DNA from: Escherichia coli
Lineage (GTDB): Bacteria > Pseudomonadota > Gammaproteobacteria > Enterobacterales > Enterobacteriaceae
Strand: one strand, 5' to 3'
DNA length: 64,000 bases
Assembly (NCBI RefSeq): GCF_044647545.1
Contig: NZ_CP172818.1
A model generated the notes under the pieces. The model was not told the DNA's origin. It was given only the letters and a program-made list of their open reading frames with translations, and searched no databases. Position numbers and translations under genes: made by a program. Numbering within the stretch: the first letter of the stretch is position 1; each line of letters opens with the position of its first letter. Shown piece after piece: positions 41,250-62,134 of the stretch.

Positions 41250-41359
41250 GTTTATTCTCTTTCTGAATATAAAAATGAACCCTCAACGCTTCCCTCAATG
41301 TTTCGGGAGCCATGCGGGTTCAATCATACACGGGAAGCGAGGCGCTTCCCATCACGTTA

Positions 41360-42478
41360 TTATTTTTCAACCTGCTGAACGTCAATTCGACGCGCTTCGT
41401 CCAGCTGACTGGCTTTCGCACGAATGCGCGCTTCCAGCTGGTCGATCATATCGTTGTTGTCCAGACGGTCTTTGCGCACGCCATCTTCATAGAGGCCGCT
41501 TTTCTTGTTGCCGCCGGTGACGCCGAGTGTAGAAACCAGCGCCTCACCTGGGCCATTCACCACGCAGCCGATAATCGAAACGTCCATCGGAGTGATGATA
41601 TCTTCCAGGCGTTGCTCCAGCGCGTTAACCGTACCGATAACATCAAACTCCTGACGCGAACAGGTTGGACAGGCGATGAAGTTGATCCCGCGCGAACGGA
41701 TACGCAGCGATTTCAAAATATCGAAACCGACTTTGATCTCTTCGACCGGATCGGCCGCCAGCGATACGCGCAGCGTGTCGCCGATGCCTTCAGACAGCAG
41801 CAGACCTAAACCAATGGCGGATTTAACCGCCCCGCTGCGCGCACCACCCGCTTCGGTGATCCCCAGATGCAGCGGCTGATCGATCTGTTTTGCCAGCAAA
41901 CGATAAGACTCAACAGCGAGGAAGACGTCAGACGCTTTCACGCTGACTTTGAACTGATCGAAGTTCAGGCGATCGAGATGATCAACATGACGCATGGCGG
42001 ATTCCAGCAACGCCTGCGGCGTCGGTTCGCCATACTTTTCTTGCAGATCTTTTTCCAGCGATCCGGCGTTAACGCCAATACGGATCGGAATGTTTTTATC
42101 GCGCGCACAGTCAACCACCATGCGAATACGCTCTTCATTACCGATATTGCCAGGGTTAATACGCAGACAATCGACGCCGTATTCCGCTACTTTCAGCGCA
42201 ATGCGATAGTCGAAATGGATGTCAGCCACCAGCGGCACGTTAACCTGCTGTTTGATGAGTTTGAACGCTTCTGCCGCGTCCATCGTCGGTACGGAGACAC
42301 GGACGATATCAGCGCCAACACGTTCCAGCGCCTTGATTTGATTGACCGTTGCTTCGACGTCTGTCGTACGCGTATTGGTCATGGACTGTACGGCGATGGG
42401 AGCACCATCGCCAATCGGCACATTCCCAACGTAAATACGTGTTGATTTTCTACGTTGAATTGGAGCCTGGTTATGCAT
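41360..42478 (-). CDS. ispG: 4-hydroxy-3-methylbut-2-enyl diphosphate synthase (flavodoxin)
   Basis: 372 aa; C-terminal Fe-S Cys ligands (ACPTCSRQ). Confidence 0.94.
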
Positions 42479-45683: not shown

Positions 45684-47996
45684 CTATTGCATGACAAATT
45701 TCACTGTCGCTATTTGCCCCACCTCATCCATCACCAGCAATTGATAATCGCCTTTATCCGTCAAATGCAGGGTCACGTTGCGCCCACGTTCAGTTAACGG
45801 TTCGCCGTTCAGAAACCACCAGCGTTCACCTGCCCCTCCACTTGATTGTAACGGCAAAGTCGCTTCCGCTGCGCCCGGTAAACGTTTAATAATCGCGCCA
45901 TCGCGCACACCTGTTAGCTGCAGCGGGAGTTGTGCATCGTGACCGTATGGCGGGCAAATTGTCGAGGCCGGTGGCAAGCGCACAGCGCGACGTTCTGATG
46001 CGGGCAGCCAGGGTTCCAGCGGTAGCGGCCAGACATTTATCATTTCTTGTCGCGCCTGAGGGCAATCAGCGGCAACACGTTTGCCGTTTTCATCCAGCCA
46101 GATGGGGAAACGAATGCCATTAATGCCTTCCTGCTCCGGCAGTAATAGAGTTGGCGGCTGACTCCCGTCCAGCAGCCAGGTTGCCAGGCGGCGGCGACAG
46201 TTACTGTCACCTTCCGGCAAAGACTGTCCGCCCGGCCAGCAGATAACGCCACGACTTACAGAGTCAGGACGTGGGTCTTCCGGCAGATTCGCACTGCGCG
46301 ACAGTAAGATATTATTGACCTGATTCAACAATGGTACGGCGCTGGCAAAGCCAAACTGACCAACAACGGGCGTGCCGTCCGGTCTGCCAGTCCAGATCCC
46401 AATGACATAGCGAGCGTTAACCCCAATCGCCCAGGCATCACGATAGCCATAGCTGGTGCCCGTTTTCCATGCCAGTGGGGCGACGCGCGGCAAGGCACCA
46501 TCCGGCAAGGGTTGCGCTTCATCAGCCATAATCCGGCGAATGATCCACGCAGCCCCCGACGACATTAAAGGCCGTTCAAGCAGCGGATCATCAGGCTGTA
46601 AGCGCAATTTACCTGCCTTGCCGTGGCGAGCAAACGCGGTATACGCTGCCGCCATATTTTCCAGTTTTGCACCAGCGCCGCCGAGAATGAGCGAAAGATT
46701 CGGCGCAGCACCGTTGGGCAAATATAACGGCAATCCAGCATTGCGTAACTTTGCCGCAAACCGTTTCGGTCCATAGGCTTCCAGCACCTGCACAGCAGGT
46801 AAGTTCAGCGATCGCACCAGCGCCTCACTCATGCTGATCGGCCCATGAAAACCGCTGTCAAAGTTGCCAGGTCGGTAATCACCGGTGCGTCGGGGGACGT
46901 CTTGCAACAGCGATGCCGGGTGGATCAAGCCTTCATCCAGCGCCAGACCATAAACAAACGGTTTGAGCACCGATCCTGGCGATCGGATCGCATTGACCAT
47001 ATCAACATGACCAAAGCGTGAATCATCGTTGAGATCAACCGATCCCACCCAGCCGCGAACACGCATATCGGTATGATCAACCACGATCATCGCCAGTGAG
47101 CTGCGCGGTGGCAATCGTCCTTTCCAGTTTTGCGCCAGTTCTTCCAGACGTCGTTGAAGACCGGCATCCAGCGTAGTAACGATTTTGTCGCTTTTGCTTT
47201 TACCGAGCATCATGCGCGAAAACAGCGGTGCCAGTTGCGGCATTTGTCGGGGTGCCAGCCAGATGGGTTCTTCCCTTGACTCTTTTACCTGCTCACGGGA
47301 CCACACACCTTGCACGGCCATCCTTTCGAGCACTTTATTACGCGCGGCTTCGGCACGTTCCGGCCAGCGATCCGGGCGCAGTCGGCTGGGCGCTTGCGGC
47401 AACACCGCCAGCATTGCCGCCTCGGAATAGCTTAAATTCGCAGGCGATTTTCCGAGATAAGCCCAACTTGCCGCACCGATCCCCTGCAACGTACCGCCAA
47501 ACGGAGCGCGGTTAAGATACAAGGTCAGAATTTCACGCTTAGACAGATGCCACTCCAGTTGCAACGCGCGCCAGAGCTGGCGAATTTTGCCGCCAAATGT
47601 TTTGGGGTGAGGATCAAGCAGACGAGCAACCTGCATAGTGAGCGTGCTGCCACCGGAAATAACCCTTCCCGAAGTGAGATCTTGCCATGCTGCGCGCGCC
47701 ACCGAGAATGGATTCACCCCCGGATGCTTCCAGAACCAGCGATCTTCATAATTGATCAGCGCTTCAAGGTAACGTGGAGAAACATCTTCGATTGTTACCG
47801 GATAACGCCAGATGCCTTCCGCATCGGCAAAGCGCCAGAGCGGCGTCCCATCCTGCGCCACAACCACTCGTGCGGGATTGACTTCATGCAGCGGTAGAGG
47901 CCAGAGTTTATCTGCTCCCCACGCTGCAAGAAAAAGGAGAAATGGCGCAGCTGCCAGCGTTATCCAGCAGCCGCGTTTGGTTAACAAGCGAGGCAT
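45684..47996 (-). CDS. pbpC: Penicillin-binding protein 1C (glycosyltransferase/transpeptidase-like)
   Basis: 770 aa; N-terminal TM; GT51 and transpeptidase regions; directly downstream of yfhM. Confidence 0.92.
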   Translation of the reverse strand: MPRLLTKRGCWITLAAAPFLLFLAAWGADKLWPLPLHEVNPARVVVAQDGTPLWRFADAEGIWRYPVTIEDVSPRYLEALINYEDRWFWKHPGVNPFSVARAAWQDLTSGRVISGGSTLTMQVARLLDPHPKTFGGKIRQLWRALQLEWHLSKREILTLYLNRAPFGGTLQGIGAASWAYLGKSPANLSYSEAAMLAVLPQAPSRLRPDRWPERAEAARNKVLERMAVQGVWSREQVKESREEPIWLAPRQMPQLAPLFSRMMLGKSKSDKIVTTLDAGLQRRLEELAQNWKGRLPPRSSLAMIVVDHTDMRVRGWVGSVDLNDDSRFGHVDMVNAIRSPGSVLKPFVYGLALDEGLIHPASLLQDVPRRTGDYRPGNFDSGFHGPISMSEALVRSLNLPAVQVLEAYGPKRFAAKLRNAGLPLYLPNGAAPNLSLILGGAGAKLENMAAAYTAFARHGKAGKLRLQPDDPLLERPLMSSGAAWIIRRIMADEAQPLPDGALPRVAPLAWKTGTSYGYRDAWAIGVNARYVIGIWTGRPDGTPVVGQFGFASAVPLLNQVNNILLSRSANLPEDPRPDSVSRGVICWPGGQSLPEGDSNCRRRLATWLLDGSQPPTLLLPEQEGINGIRFPIWLDENGKRVAADCPQARQEMINVWPLPLEPWLPASERRAVRLPPASTICPPYGHDAQLPLQLTGVRDGAIIKRLPGAAEATLPLQSSGGAGERWWFLNGEPLTERGRNVTLHLTDKGDYQLLVMDEVGQIATVKFVMQ

Positions 47997-50900
47997 TTAC
48001 GGTCTGACAATCAGCAAATCTTCAGCCGCGCCGGTCGCCCGCCATTGGGGAACATACATTGATTCCACCATCGGTTGCGGTACCTGATACGTTCCCGGCG
48101 TCACCGCCCGCGCCAGATACACCAGCGTTACCGGTTGGTATTCATCAACGGCAACCGCCGCCACAAAGCGATCGTCACGGAACTCAATGTGCTTAATGCT
48201 CGCCTGCTGCATCTGGTTCAGTAAGTTTTGCACTTCGCCACCACTTTGCTCCAGGCTGGCGCTACCGTTCGCCAGATTCTGGTTTTCCAGTTCCAGACCC
48301 GCAGGCAGCAGATCCACGACTAACGCATCCGGCACGCTGTTACTGGCTTTTACCTGCAACCAGACCAGCACCAGATCGCCGCTACGTAACGAGTCCAGCG
48401 ATTTGCTCTTACCATCAGTACCAAGAATATGACGCTCGATTTGCAGCACATTGTTCGCCGGTAAAGGTGCGGATTGCGGATAACCGCTGGCATCCACACG
48501 CAGCCATAACGGCTGATCGCCACTGTTGGTCACCTGCAAGGTGGCAAGTTGATCACTATTCAGATTGCTGTTTAGCGTTTTCTCGCCTGTCAGCGGCTCA
48601 GCTGAGAAAGAGGTTTGCGCCTGCCATTTACCCGGTAAATCCTGAACCGTACGGGCAGCCAGGAACAACGCGTTACTTTCCTGCGTCGATAGCCAGCGTT
48701 CACCAAACGCCTGCTGCGAAAGCGTATTCAGCAAAGTGTTCTGCTCATCGGGTAGCAGTTTATTTTCTTCCAGCAAGGAGAGCATTAACGCGTTGTCGCG
48801 CAGTGGGCTACCGTAATCACCCAGCCATTTCCGCTCATCATTACGCGGCGTTTTCAGCGCCAGCGCAATTGCTTCTTCACCACGCGTCGCATCACCCATG
48901 GTTTTCAGCGCAACGCCAAGTTGCAGCAGCGGTAAACCAGAAGCGGCATCTGCACGATGCTCCCAGATTTCACGCAGCGCACCCAGTGGAGCTTTTTGCT
49001 GACGGGCCAGCACCAGCGCAGCGTAAGACTGTACGGCGAATTTACTGGCTTTGAGATTATCCGCATACGGAATCGACATCATGCCCGGATCTTGTAAATA
49101 GCGCAGTAGACGCTCATTCCCCCGGTTAATGGCGTCTGTCGGCACGCTGTAACCCTGCTCACCTGCGCGGACCAGGAAATCCATCACGTAAGCCGTCAGC
49201 CAGTACTCTTCATCACCGTTTTTATCCCACAGCGCAAAGCCACCGTTATCACGTTGCATTTGCAGTAAACGAGAAATGCCGATATCGACTGCCGCACGGC
49301 GCTTCTCATCACTGTCGCCTTTGATGCCCAACGCCTGCAGTTGGGCTGCGTTGGTGTAAAGTGACGGGAACAGGCCGCTGGCGGTTTGCTCCAGACAACC
49401 GTACGGATACGCTTTTAACTCTTTGATATAACGTGCAATATTCAACGGTGGTTTGCCGCTCAACAACAATTGCCCTTCCAGCGTAACAGGCGAGAAGTTT
49501 TGCAATCCATCAGCTGGAATCGCCCATGTCTCACCAGGCTGCAACGCCGTACCGTAATTGACCGTTTGTGCCGGGAATGCCGGACGGACGCCGATTTTCC
49601 ACTGTTTATGCTGATCGGCAACGGTTTCCCCCGGTAACGCTAACCCGCTAATGGTGGCCTGAATGTCACCATCGCCAAACCCCGTCAGAGCACGCACCGG
49701 GATAAACAGCGTAGTACGCACCCCTGGCGCTAATTCAACGGCTGCGGGTGAATCGCTGACCAGTTCAAGCAAACCACTGGCGGTCAGGGCAACGTTCAGT
49801 TTTTGCGGTTTATCGGTAAGATTAGTGATATCCAGCGTCAGACGCGAGGTATCGCCACTCGCCATAAAGCGCGGCATGTTCAGTTCAGCAATCACCGGTG
49901 CGGCAACTATCACTTTGCTTTCGTTGCTACCGAAGTCATCTGCCGTCCAGGCTTGCGCCATGACGCGCAATTCACCGTTAAAATCGCCAATCGGCAGTGC
50001 AACCGAGCCTTCGCCCTGTTCGTTGAGCGTTACCGGCAGCGCCTGCTGCGCGACAATATTGACGTGATTGACCGGCGGTTTACCACCACGTTTCAGCTCA
50101 TCACCATCGCCACCGAAACGCAGAGCTGCCAGACGCCCCTGACCTTCAATAACCTGACCGTAAATATCGTAAATGTCTGCGCCATAGCGTTTCTGACCAA
50201 AGAACGCCTGCCACGGATCTGGCGTAACGTAGCCAGTAATATTCAGCACACCACTATCAACGGCAGACACCAGCACATTCACCTGTTTAGGCTTCTCGCC
50301 ATTTTTAGTGCTGGCTTTAATTTTCACGGTTAATGGTTGATTGGGACGCATTTTTGCTGGTGTTTCCAGCGCCAGATCGAGGCGACGGTTTTCATCACCA
50401 AGCGGCAGATGCAACACACCAACCGCGCGTTTTGGCGTCGCGGAGCGAGATTTATCGCCAGGACGCACCACCAGCGTACTCAAATAAAGATCATGACGAT
50501 TCCAGGTTTTATTGACCGGAATCGTCAGATCCAGCCCTTGAGCCGGAACATCAATCTCTTGCCACCACAGCGGCCCTTCACTGGACTCGACCATCGCATA
50601 ACCTTTACCCGCCGTTGGCGCAGCAATATGCAACTTAATGGTATCGCCAGGGCGATAACTGGCTTTATCCAGTTTCAGCGTGACACGGTCGGGTCGCACG
50701 GCACCGCTCCCGTCGCTGTTGTCCTGCCAGCTATAGCCAGCCCAGAAACGCACACTACTGACCGCTTCATTCGGCGCTTTGACTTCCAGACGATAAGCGC
50801 CCCACTCTACCGGGAAACTGACCTTGCCGGTTTCGTCCGCTTTCAGATCCAGAGTTTGTTCATTTTCGATCAGATCTTTTTGATCAAACTGTGACTGCCA

Positions 50901-52955
50901 GCCTTCATCTTCTGACCAGTTCCAGTAGTAATCGCGGCGTTCGCGAATCAGGCGCACCTGCAAGCCCGACACGGCTTTTTTTACGCCTTGCGCATCGCTA
51001 TAAACGATGTCAAAAGCGGCGTTACTGCCTTCATCAACAATGGGCTGTTTCACAGTGCTGTCAGTGCGATAATCGTAAGCCGATTTCGAGGCGAACTGCG
51101 GACGGATCCCCGGCAATGCATCGGCAGGCCAGATAGCCTGCTCAGCGCGGCGCGTCACCGGGCGACCGCCCGATTCCAGCAAACTACCCTGGAAAATAAC
51201 CTGTAATGGGGAATGCGTTTCCTTCCACTGGCTTTCTGTAGAAACTTCGCCACGCCCTTTATCATCCAGCGTCAACTGAACTTCATCCAGCGTGCGGGAA
51301 AGATTTTCGGCAGCTATCTCGCCGAATTCGAAACCAGGTAAGGCTGACACAGCTTCACGCAGTGGGCGCAGGAAAAGTTGCCCTTGCAAAATATTACCAT
51401 TAGCAGGCGCACCATACAGGTAGTACCCCACCACGGAGAATTTCACTTCATCTTTCGGCGTTAGCGGGGTTTTCTCACCGGTCAGATTCAGCGCCATGCG
51501 CTCTGGCATAAAATCTTCGACGTGGAAATCCCACATCCGGTACTGGTTATCGCCCGTGTTAGCGCGAATATGCCACATACCGGTTGCCGCATTGCTATCG
51601 AGTGGCCAGGTAAAGTGGTAGAGGCCATTCTCCGGCTGACTAACGACGCTCCTGAGTACCTGCCCGTCGGGTTTAATCACGTCTAACTTGATGGGTTGAT
51701 CGGGCAATGCTTTACCGTCTGCATCACGCAGCAAACCATTGAGGATGACCGTTTCACCCGGGCGATAAAGATCGCGCGGGCCAAACATGAAAAACTGTTT
51801 GCTATAGCCCGGCGCGCCAGCAATGTTAAATTCCGCTAAGTCCAGCGCCGGGAGTTTTAAATCGAGTAGCGTTGTCTGACCGTCTTTACGCGCCAGCAGT
51901 AATGCCGCATTTTTATCATTTTCCAGCTGCACATGCCCCTGAGCATCACTGGTTGCCTGAGTCAGAGTCTGCCCTTTCTCATTTAATAAAGAGACTTCTA
52001 TTCCTTGCTGGGCCGCGCCGTTTTCCAGACTTTGGGTAAAGATATCCAGACGATTGTGATAACGGTGAGCTGAAACGCCGATATCACTTAACGTAAACAG
52101 CGTCGCGGGATTACTGTAATCGTAACGTCCAGCCTGATTCATCACAGCCAGATACACGCCTGCCTGCTGAAGCGGTTTGATATCGCCCAGCGGCAGCAAT
52201 AATTTTTCACGGGTGTTACGCGCAGGATTGAGATCAAACCGTCCAGTGTAGACCAGATCCGCCATCTGCAGCAGTTTGTCTGACTGCCAGTTCGCCAGCG
52301 AATTGCGGTATTCCCATTGGCTAATGAAAGCGGGCAGTGATTCTGGTTTCACACGGAAGAAGTTAACATCGACATTGTTAACGTTGAGCGCCATTACCGG
52401 CAGCCCTTCAATAACTTTACCAGGTAACAACGAACCACGGCTGGCAAAACCGACGCTGGGTTGGATATCACGGGTAGTTATAGTTTTTTCGTCATCTTTA
52501 CTGAAGGTTGCGTTGTTGAGTGCTTTGACCTCCTTGCCAATAGTGACGATCAAATCACGTTTCGGTTCGAGGTGGCGTAAACGCAACTCTTTAAGATTAT
52601 CTGACAGCTCCCAGGCACCATCCACTTTGCCGCTTTTCTTATCGACGACATGGATAACGCGTGAGAAATCCTGATCCGGGTCGAGAGGAATGGAGAACGT
52701 CAGCACCAGCGTGGCTGCGCCATCAAGTTGAACTTCAGAGAGATCCAGCAATGTCAGCGCCTTACCGGCACTCTGTTGGGCCAGTTTTTGTCGCTCCGGC
52801 GCGGAAAGTTTTGCTGAACTCACGTTTTCTGAAGAGGCCGCTTTAGTAACTTCAGAAGGCGCATCTTTTTTCACCGCTGTTGGCGCGTTATCGTTGTTGT
52901 CGCACCCTGCCAGCGCCAGCATTAGCATGCAGGCGGCTACGCGTAACTTTTTCAT
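47997..52955 (-). CDS. yfhM: Alpha-2-macroglobulin family lipoprotein (protease trap)
   Basis: 1652 aa; lipobox LALAGCDNN; thioester motif GCLEQ; stop abuts pbpC start. Confidence 0.92.
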   Translation of the reverse strand: MKKLRVAACMLMLALAGCDNNDNAPTAVKKDAPSEVTKAASSENVSSAKLSAPERQKLAQQSAGKALTLLDLSEVQLDGAATLVLTFSIPLDPDQDFSRVIHVVDKKSGKVDGAWELSDNLKELRLRHLEPKRDLIVTIGKEVKALNNATFSKDDEKTITTRDIQPSVGFASRGSLLPGKVIEGLPVMALNVNNVDVNFFRVKPESLPAFISQWEYRNSLANWQSDKLLQMADLVYTGRFDLNPARNTREKLLLPLGDIKPLQQAGVYLAVMNQAGRYDYSNPATLFTLSDIGVSAHRYHNRLDIFTQSLENGAAQQGIEVSLLNEKGQTLTQATSDAQGHVQLENDKNAALLLARKDGQTTLLDLKLPALDLAEFNIAGAPGYSKQFFMFGPRDLYRPGETVILNGLLRDADGKALPDQPIKLDVIKPDGQVLRSVVSQPENGLYHFTWPLDSNAATGMWHIRANTGDNQYRMWDFHVEDFMPERMALNLTGEKTPLTPKDEVKFSVVGYYLYGAPANGNILQGQLFLRPLREAVSALPGFEFGEIAAENLSRTLDEVQLTLDDKGRGEVSTESQWKETHSPLQVIFQGSLLESGGRPVTRRAEQAIWPADALPGIRPQFASKSAYDYRTDSTVKQPIVDEGSNAAFDIVYSDAQGVKKAVSGLQVRLIRERRDYYWNWSEDEGWQSQFDQKDLIENEQTLDLKADETGKVSFPVEWGAYRLEVKAPNEAVSSVRFWAGYSWQDNSDGSGAVRPDRVTLKLDKASYRPGDTIKLHIAAPTAGKGYAMVESSEGPLWWQEIDVPAQGLDLTIPVNKTWNRHDLYLSTLVVRPGDKSRSATPKRAVGVLHLPLGDENRRLDLALETPAKMRPNQPLTVKIKASTKNGEKPKQVNVLVSAVDSGVLNITGYVTPDPWQAFFGQKRYGADIYDIYGQVIEGQGRLAALRFGGDGDELKRGGKPPVNHVNIVAQQALPVTLNEQGEGSVALPIGDFNGELRVMAQAWTADDFGSNESKVIVAAPVIAELNMPRFMASGDTSRLTLDITNLTDKPQKLNVALTASGLLELVSDSPAAVELAPGVRTTLFIPVRALTGFGDGDIQATISGLALPGETVADQHKQWKIGVRPAFPAQTVNYGTALQPGETWAIPADGLQNFSPVTLEGQLLLSGKPPLNIARYIKELKAYPYGCLEQTASGLFPSLYTNAAQLQALGIKGDSDEKRRAAVDIGISRLLQMQRDNGGFALWDKNGDEEYWLTAYVMDFLVRAGEQGYSVPTDAINRGNERLLRYLQDPGMMSIPYADNLKASKFAVQSYAALVLARQQKAPLGALREIWEHRADAASGLPLLQLGVALKTMGDATRGEEAIALALKTPRNDERKWLGDYGSPLRDNALMLSLLEENKLLPDEQNTLLNTLSQQAFGERWLSTQESNALFLAARTVQDLPGKWQAQTSFSAEPLTGEKTLNSNLNSDQLATLQVTNSGDQPLWLRVDASGYPQSAPLPANNVLQIERHILGTDGKSKSLDSLRSGDLVLVWLQVKASNSVPDALVVDLLPAGLELENQNLANGSASLEQSGGEVQNLLNQMQQASIKHIEFRDDRFVAAVAVDEYQPVTLVYLARAVTPGTYQVPQPMVESMYVPQWRATGAAEDLLIVRP

Positions 52956-53161
52956 TTTTCATCCCTGCCACAATGGCCCGTTAGCAACGTCGAATAATTA
53001 TTATGCGTGAGAATTTACGTTATGTAATTCAGTATCACGCCCATACAATCCGAATTTTAGTGAGAATTGTGGCTCAGACAGCCAAATCAGCCTCTTTTGC
53101 TTGTCGCTTTTCACTAAACATCCGACAATTTAGCCTAACCCCGGCAAAAATGGAGATGCCT

Positions 53162-54051: not shown

Positions 54052-54294
54052 ATTGCTGGTCTGTTCCCTCAATATACCAAACACCCACGACACAAACTCC
54101 TAACCTCTTTCAACAAAAAATTTCTTTATTATATCCACTGCGGCCCTTTCCGCCAACTTAAAAAATGTTCGGTAATAAAATAACCTGGCTTATTAGTCCG
54201 AATTCGGACAAATATAAACAAATCAGCTCAATATTAAAAATACTAATCGGTAAAAGATATTACTTAAACGTGTAAATTCACTTTCTTTAAACAA

Positions 54295-54325
54295 CAAAAA
54301 ACCGCCAAAATCAGGCGGTTTTTTG
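54295..54325. repeat. Second copy of the A-run/hairpin/T-run element (terminator-like)
   Basis: aaaaaaccgcc-aaaatcag-ggcggtttttt followed by gttgctggt, as after copy 1. Confidence 0.6.
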
Positions 54326-54474
54326 TTGCTGGTTTGGTTCGCGGCCTTTCCAGCAGATTGGCTTGTGTTGCATGAGCAACGCAGGTGCTTCACAGCAAAG
54401 CAATACTCGCCAGTAACTCTCTTTTTGTCAAGCGAAAGAGAGTAATCATTGTTTATTTAGCGTATTATCGACAC

Positions 54475-54780
54475 CGGCCCTTTCCGCCGTCTCGCAAACG
54501 GGCGCTGGCTTAAGGAAAGGATGTTCCATGGCCGTAAATGCAGGTGTTTCACAGCGCTTGCTATCGCGGCAATATCGCCAGTGGTGCTGTCGTGATGCGG
54601 TCTTCGCATGGACCGCACAATGAAGATACGGAGCTTTTGTATCGTACTTATTGTTTCTGGTGCGCTGTTAACCGAGGTAAATAATAACCGGAGTCTCTCC
54701 GGCAACAATTTATTGGTGGTTAACAACCTTCAGAACAGCAGGTAAGCCCGAATGCCGCCCTTTGGGGCGGCATATTTTAG
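54475..54780 (+). ncRNA. ryfA: ryfA-like small RNA / small-protein mRNA (boundaries approximate)
   Basis: -10-like TATTAT at 54463-54468; transcript would run to the terminator atgccgccc-tttg-gggcggcat + T-tract at 54752-54780; about 305 nt; position between sseA and sseB. Confidence 0.45.
54521..54595 (+). CDS. Candidate 24-aa hydrophobic small protein within the ryfA-like transcript (type-I toxin-like)
   Basis: Strong SD AAGGAAAGG directly upstream of ATG; MFHGRKCRCFTALAIAAISPVVLS*. Alternative ORF 54620..54745 (41 aa, MKIRSFCIVLIVSGALL...) has no obvious SD. Confidence 0.3.
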   Translation: MFHGRKCRCFTALAIAAISPVVLS

Positions 54781-62023: not shown

Positions 62024-62134
62024 TGCTCTATAAACTCCGTACATCACTCAATGCAAGGAACCAGGCTACCGGCTGGATGTACGACCGTGTTTACGGAGTG
62101 TTTAGCACTCCGGCCTGATTCTGAATTCTTTTTA

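Follow-up and report, generated by a model that had tools for sequence, protein, structure and literature searches.

The yfhM–pbpC locus of Escherichia coli: a core-genome gene pair for a type I alpha-2-macroglobulin lipoprotein and penicillin-binding protein 1C

This work deals with the gene pair yfhM–pbpC in a stretch of 64,000 nucleotides (nt) of Escherichia coli DNA (RefSeq assembly GCF_044647545.1, contig NZ_CP172818.1), which in its full length is referred to as the window. The first gene encodes ECAM, a type I bacterial alpha-2-macroglobulin lipoprotein, and the second encodes PBP1C, a class A penicillin-binding protein (PBP). We regard it as very probable that the locus is the core-genome yfhM–pbpC gene pair of E. 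coli, with the ECAM trap, PBP1C and the expression as proposed in the following. The pair is already known and well studied and does not represent a new finding. Both genes were found as minus-strand open reading frames (ORFs) at exactly the positions given in a preliminary description of this DNA (Table 1), and the gene identities named there hold as well, based on Pfam, the PDB, the alignment with K-12 and, for PbpC, NCBIfam. Since the ORFs are long, the domain E-values reach down to 1e-51 and the PDB matches show an E-value of 0, chance occurrence is not an issue. The 7.5 kb segment comprising the two genes is present in 5425 of 5426 complete E. coli genomes, located on the chromosome every time. 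It is at least 99% identical over this length in 82 complete E. coli genomes and 100% identical to several chromosomes (MS6198, ECONIH1 and others), and on such identical DNA the RefSeq labels are 'alpha2-macroglobulin' for yfhM and pbpC for its neighbour. The gene order in the window (rodZ, rlmN, ndk, pbpC, yfhM, sseA, ryfA, sseB, pepB) corresponds to that of K-12.

In YfhM, eleven Pfam families were determined above their cut-offs and in the expected order between residues 59 and 1637, namely bMG1, A2M_bMG2, bMG3, MG2, bMG5, bMG6, A2M_BRD, A2M, TED_complement, CUB_A2MG and bMG10. The search with hidden Markov models, which had been proposed as a check of the domain architecture, thus yielded the complete bacterial alpha-2-macroglobulin set. 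In a sequence search of the PDB, YfhM matched the E. coli ECAM structures 4RTD, 4ZIQ and 5A42 with an E-value of 0 over approximately the full mature length. None of the NCBIfam models matches YfhM, which was therefore identified by way of Pfam, the PDB and the RefSeq annotation.

The N-terminus of YfhM reads MKKLRVAACMLMLALAGCDNN, with a predicted cleavage between MKKLRVAACMLMLALAG and the following C. The lipobox LAGC, already noted in the preliminary description, is seen in the translation and is directly followed by Asp19, that is, by an aspartate at position +2 relative to the predicted acylated cysteine. According to the Lol sorting rule, an aspartate at +2 acts as a signal for retention in the inner membrane. 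For ECAM, anchoring in the inner membrane has been described (PMC4498604). The numbering of the bait region agrees with the residues Arg923–Leu942, Arg956, Gly958 and Asn963 of the elastase-cleaved ECAM structure (PMC4498604). Re-inspection of the thioester site claimed before revealed an intact CLEQ, preceded by a glycine, and no further CxEQ is contained in the protein. The C-terminal MG domain carries the motifs RDDR at residue 1593 and ESMY (ExMY) at residue 1631, and motifs of these two types shield the thioester. In an alignment of the window protein with 63 homologues, reaching down to 30% identity, the residues Y1185, G1186, C1187, E1189, Q1190, D1595, R1596 and M1633 were invariant in all 64 sequences. 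A HMMER search with the C-terminal 900 residues of YfhM as query resulted in 3176 representative proteins at E ≤ 1e-30. Among the best 150 of these, CxEQ was present in all 122 full-length homologues, in 98 cases as CLEQ and in the remainder as CAEQ, CIEQ, CTEQ, CVEQ or CSEQ. A loose lipobox pattern was found in 44 of the same 122 proteins; among the more distant type I proteins, many may use a different anchor or have a miscalled start.

Since YfhM comprises the cysteine of CxEQ and the lipobox cysteine and is encoded next to pbpC, it is a type I bacterial alpha-2-macroglobulin of the ECAM / Sa-A2M class. A described counterpart in another genus is the orthologue Sa-A2M of Salmonella enterica (PDB 4U48, 4U4J, 4U59), which shares the domain order, the thioester and the lipoprotein anchor (PMC5764988) and is about 81-82% identical to ECAM (PMC4498604). 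In the PDB search, 4U48 was matched over the full length with 3046 bits (residues 18-1652 of YfhM). The type II proteins, such as MagD of P. aeruginosa and YfaS of E. coli, show the same superfamily fold, a bait region, a periplasmic location and an association with the inner membrane (PMC3735191, PMC5764988), but lack the CxEQ thioester as well as the lipobox cysteine, and their genes are part of a six-gene mag-type operon, whereas the gene of YfhM adjoins pbpC. Human alpha-2-macroglobulin, complement C3 and CD109 have the MG domains, the CUB-TED insertion, CxEQ and a bait-triggered conformational change in common with ECAM. This distant relation was also reflected by weak but significant matches of YfhM to the eukaryotic structures 7voo, 6tav, 8cem and 9fx2 (E of 1e-6 to 3e-4 in the PDB search). 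In contrast to these eukaryotic thioester proteins, ECAM is a monomeric lipoprotein with two additional N-terminal MG domains and without receptor-mediated clearance, and its identity to human A2M amounts to only about 12% (PMC4498604).

For PbpC, the assignment is supported by the NCBIfam equivalog NF008414 with 1567 bits (cut-off 1121) over residues 1-770 and by TIGR02073 with 914 bits (cut-off 494). Three Pfam domains were found above their cut-offs: Transgly (PF00912), Transpeptidase (PF00905) and BiPBP_C (PF06832). The transpeptidase motifs are kept as S342-V-L-K345 (SxxK), S396-L-N398 (SxN) and K511-T-G513 (KTG), and the first catalytic glutamate of the glycosyltransferase (GT) domain GT51 is Glu84 in motif 1, EDRWFWKHPG (EDxxFxxHxG). 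All of these, SxxK, SxN, KTG and E84, are invariant across 65 PbpC orthologues, and motifs 1, 2 and 4 of GT51 are intact. PbpC is a class A PBP anchored in the inner membrane that combines a glycan-polymerase module of the GT51 type with a penicillin-binding module of the transpeptidase type and a family-specific C-terminal domain. PBP1A and PBP1B likewise comprise a GT51 and a transpeptidase module, an N-terminal membrane anchor, EDxxFxxHxG, SxxK, SxN and KTG. PBP1C differs from them by the additional BiPBP_C domain, by GKIRQ in place of RKxxE in motif 3 of GT51, by the lack of a solved structure and by its inability to replace PBP1A or PBP1B.

A comparison with K-12 (b2520/b2519) showed that the locus, its neighbours, the junction TAAATG, the lipobox, the bait, CLEQ, RDDR and ExMY are identical. 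YfhM shares 1624 of 1653 residues with b2520 (98%; 28 substitutions), the DNA being 97.3% identical with 103 synonymous and 28 non-synonymous codons; in addition, one codon is deleted in yfhM of the window, so that Ser1373 of K-12, a residue in a variable loop of the thioester domain, is lacking. PbpC shares 759 of 770 residues with b2519 (99%; 11 substitutions) at a DNA identity of 97.1%, with 55 synonymous and 11 non-synonymous codons. Both proteins are of full length compared to K-12 and their motifs are kept, which bears out the earlier statement that the pair is intact. The neighbouring genes ndk and rlmN show DNA identities to K-12 of 97.2% and 98.1%. A recombinant or unusually divergent allele was considered and rejected, since the differences are evenly distributed along both genes, mostly synonymous and at the level of ndk and rlmN. 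They are ordinary between-lineage variation under purifying selection.

At the junction, the stop codon of yfhM is directly followed by the start codon of pbpC, leaving an intergenic gap of 0 nt, so that the abutment at 47996/47997 described before was found again in the sequence TAAATG. The Shine-Dalgarno pairing in the 25 nt 5' of the pbpC ATG amounted to +0.4 kcal/mol, compared to -6.0 kcal/mol before yfhM. Based on the gap of 0 nt and the missing Shine-Dalgarno sequence, a translational coupling of pbpC to yfhM is suggested: ribosomes terminating at the TAA of yfhM would restart at the adjacent ATG (termination-reinitiation). A terminator between the two genes had been named as an observation that would speak against co-transcription; no terminator-like site was found on the minus strand near 47997. 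Judging from the gene geometry, yfhM and pbpC most likely share one transcript that starts in the region between yfhM and the divergent gene sseA, which presumably contains the promoter. A sigma-70-like match in this region is a match to the consensus only. Since the number of sites in the promoter scan (6) was no higher than in shuffled sequence (5.6 expected), it carries no statistical weight. No convincing terminator was found in the spacer between pbpC and ndk, whose folding did not exceed that of shuffled sequence (z = -0.39) and which therefore defines no 3' end of the transcript. In the literature, yfhM and pbpC are described as an operon or as juxtaposed genes (PMC4498604, PMC3328433, PMC5764988, PMC7554673), the term operon resting on genomic grounds in PMC4498604 and PMC5764988. 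The two genes also share their reading frame, with nothing but the TAA between them. A fusion of YfhM and PbpC by stop-codon read-through was considered and rejected, since a spacer of 1 nt breaks the frame in most other Enterobacteriaceae, and the shared frame is taken as incidental.

The pairing was further followed by a synteny scan with one genome per species, seeded with the 64-sequence alignment, which resulted in 76 loci, 69 of them informative. A PbpC homologue was located downstream of the alpha-2-macroglobulin gene (a2m) on the same strand in 66 of the 69, upstream in one, and was absent within 5 kb in two. Paired loci were found in Enterobacterales, Pseudomonas, Orbales, Pseudoalteromonas, Marinobacterium and Sedimenticola. 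The gap between the a2m stop and the pbpC start, for which the pbpC starts outside Escherichia and Citrobacter are estimates, was 0 nt in five loci (Escherichia and Citrobacter), 1 nt in 14 loci (other Enterobacteriaceae), 3-11 nt in four loci and 23-203 nt in 15 loci (Yersinia, Serratia, Photorhabdus, Gilliamella, Pseudoalteromonas and others). In Pseudomonas, it was 417-740 nt in 26 loci and more than 2 kb in two loci. The synteny of a2m and pbpC is therefore strongly conserved across Gammaproteobacteria, and it is in the Enterobacteriaceae that the two genes are tightly coupled. As a side observation, in Pseudomonas sp. HMWF032 (locus L037) a gene for a thermolysin-like M4 metalloprotease with the domains FTP, PepSY, Peptidase_M4 and M4_C separates the protease-trap gene from pbpC, and in another locus (L076) a different ORF of 495 amino acids (aa) lies in the a2m–pbpC gap.

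ECAM has been described as a protease trap in the periplasm, anchored in the inner membrane, in which the C-terminal MG domain lets go of the thioester domain once the bait is cleaved, so that Cys1187-Gln1190 is exposed for covalent capture (PMC4498604, PMC3328433, PMC5764988). Thioester and covalent trapping were demonstrated for the K-12 and the Salmonella proteins (PMC4498604, PMC5764988), and from the 98% identity to the K-12 protein we infer both for YfhM of the window. The window protein would be exported, lipidated at Cys18, retained in the inner membrane by the aspartate at +2 and oriented towards the periplasm. A protease cutting the disordered bait (approximately residues 923-963) would expose the buried thioester, which would then react with a lysine of the protease while YfhM closes round it ('snap-trap'). 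For the K-12 protein, this course of events has been demonstrated.

The preliminary description had also assigned the pair a common role in periplasmic defence and repair. Of this claim, the pairing itself is real and conserved, as seen in the 66 of 69 loci, and the joint role is still a hypothesis. The idea of trapping the protease and repairing the wall is attributed to Budd et al. 2004 by the papers citing that work (PMC4498604, PMC3328433, PMC5764988). Proteases breaching the outer membrane would be trapped by ECAM, and the peptidoglycan would be patched by PBP1C. Altogether, the joint role of ECAM and PBP1C is a standing published hypothesis which is backed by the conserved synteny. A defence annotation in the sense of anti-phage systems was rejected for both proteins, since the PADLOC anti-phage models match neither YfhM nor PbpC. 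The cooperation of ECAM and PBP1C, the purpose of PBP1C and the meaning of the family-wide change from glutamate to glutamine described below concern the field in general and are not specific to the window.

Several observations weigh against the picture of a co-expressed and cooperating pair. In 27 Pseudomonas loci, a2m and pbpC are separated by a conserved hydrophobic ORF of 97 aa on the opposite strand, for which Pfam gave no match. Together with the gap of 417-740 nt in 26 loci, this means that the operon structure is not universal, the synteny being kept there without a simple operon. In K-12, a peak of sigma-E RNA polymerase holoenzyme was reported inside yfhM at position 2649866 (6.1-fold), determined by systematic evolution of ligands by exponential enrichment (PMC5493296). 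Depending on the genome version, the peak is placed about 125 nt inside the 5' end of yfhM or in the middle of the gene. It could be a hint at envelope-stress control. Furthermore, a promoter inside the 5 kb of yfhM may drive pbpC, the cited literature on ECAM and PBP1C contains no experiment on a joint action and no physical or genetic interaction of the two, and the sole phenotype found for PBP1C, a support of LdtD-dependent labelling by extra glycosyltransferase (GTase) capacity upon overproduction, has no link to ECAM (PMC6131605). These points could be explained if yfhM and pbpC were neighbours by inheritance, expressed and acting independently, with a pbpC promoter in the 3' part of yfhM and a peptidoglycan task of PBP1C unrelated to ECAM. 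We consider this unlikely, since the 19 Enterobacteriaceae loci with a gap of 0-1 nt and the missing Shine-Dalgarno sequence before pbpC of the window point to a coupled expression, a consensus promoter scan (a weak method) of the minus strand gave no match within the 3' part of yfhM, and the synteny over such distances would hardly be expected if the two genes had no functional link. It is also conceivable, although on the whole rather less probable than the opposite, that the module is real and its targets are not host proteases but those of competitor microbes or of the cell's own secretion traffic, which would make it a part of envelope housekeeping and not a colonisation factor. The occurrence of a2m–pbpC in free-living genera from the sea and the soil (Marinobacterium, Pseudoalteromonas, Sedimenticola and many Pseudomonas) and not only in host-associated ones, the M4 protease gene between the pair in Pseudomonas and the scenario of inter-bacterial competition raised in PMC3328433 are in line with such targets. 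On the other hand, ECAM traps mammalian proteases in vitro, elastase among them (PMC4498604), and with a broad-spectrum bait the scenarios are not discriminated.

A further point against the proposed picture is motif 3 of GT51. The canonical second glutamate (RKxxE) is missing in PbpC, where Gln140 aligns with the glutamate of RKIKE, RKINE, RKITE and RKARE in the GT domains of five solved class A PBPs (PBP1a). Since glutamine is found at this position in all 65 PbpC orthologues, each of which adjoins an alpha-2-macroglobulin gene, it is the norm of the family and not a defect of this copy. The synthase activity of PBP1C may therefore be non-canonical. Among the papers searched, none contained both RKxxE and PBP1c. 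In addition, no role of PBP1C is known under laboratory conditions, and it is not able to take the place of PBP1A/1B (PMC7554673). Both the invariant glutamine and this inability would fit a PBP1C that is not a conventional glycan polymerase but mainly a binding partner of peptidoglycan or lipid II, a scaffold partner or a conditionally active enzyme. This was judged highly improbable, since the essential first glutamate E84 and the motifs 1, 2 and 4 of GT51 are intact. Moreover, PBP1C is said to have shown moenomycin-sensitive transglycosylase activity in work by Schiffer and Höltje from 1999. Its overproduction also restores LdtD-dependent labelling in a PBP1b mutant, which is consistent with GTase activity (PMC6131605). 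If the invariant glutamine matters for function, PBP1C could also be a glycan synthase that has a mechanism of its own or becomes active under certain conditions only, such as damage to the envelope. This notion is quite doubtful, too; if true, it would explain the absent laboratory phenotype as well as the inability to replace PBP1A/1B.

Table 1. Positions of the yfhM–pbpC features and of further elements. Positions are those of the window unless a synteny locus (L) is given.
Feature	Position	Strand	Remarks
yfhM coding sequence	47997..52955	minus	ORF, 1652 aa + TAA; ECAM, type I bacterial alpha-2-macroglobulin lipoprotein
Lipoprotein signal peptide, residues 1-18	52902..52955	minus	from the translation
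Lipobox LAGC, residues 15-18	52902-52913	minus	predicted acylated Cys18, Asp19 at +2
Bait region, residues 923-963	50067..50189	minus	RYGADIYDIYGQVIEGQGRLAALRFGGDGDELKRGGKPPVN; identical to K-12 here
Thioester motif CLEQ, Cys1187-Gln1190	49386..49397	minus	within YPYGCLEQ; sole CxEQ in YfhM
Junction TAAATG	47994..47999	minus	yfhM stop 47999-47997, pbpC ATG 47996-47994
pbpC coding sequence	45684..47996	minus	ORF, 770 aa + TAG; PBP1C, class A PBP / peptidoglycan glycosyltransferase
GT51 glycosyltransferase domain, residues 60-226	47319..47819	minus	Pfam and motifs
GT51 motif 3 GKIRQ, residues 136-140	47577-47591	minus	Gln140 codon 47577-47579; canonical RKxxE
Transpeptidase domain, residues 330-519	46440..47009	minus	Pfam and motifs
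BiPBP_C, PBP1C-specific C-terminal domain, residues 687-767	45696..45938	minus	PF06832, 63.9 bits
Divergent intergenic region yfhM–sseA, 206 nt	52956..53161		presumed promoter region
Sigma-70-like match ATTACA-17-CATAAT	53028..53000	minus	consensus match only
Pseudomonas spacer ORF, 97 aa	L025:9810-10103	minus	equivalents in 26 other loci, e.g. L027, L029, L032, L040, L062
Thermolysin-like M4 metalloprotease gene, 495 aa	L037:10351-11838	minus	Pseudomonas sp. HMWF032
IS128 RNA	54138-54338	plus	Rfam, 188 bits; between sseA and sseB
ryfA	54474-54778	plus	Rfam, 314 bits; between sseA and sseB
sroE small RNA	41269-41360	minus	Rfam; placed between hisS and ispG in K-12
iscR stability element (iscRS)	62025-62134	minus	Rfam

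Apart from the gene pair, four RNA elements were found in the window with Rfam. In the K-12 annotation, the spacer between sseA and sseB comprises timR, ryfA and the small toxin gene timP. MS6198 carries two copies of timP and a fragment of sseB between sseA and sseB (L001:1951-2758), whereas the window is single-copy and K-12-like with a spacer of 770 nt. The small RNA sroE and the iscRS element are standard features of K-12.

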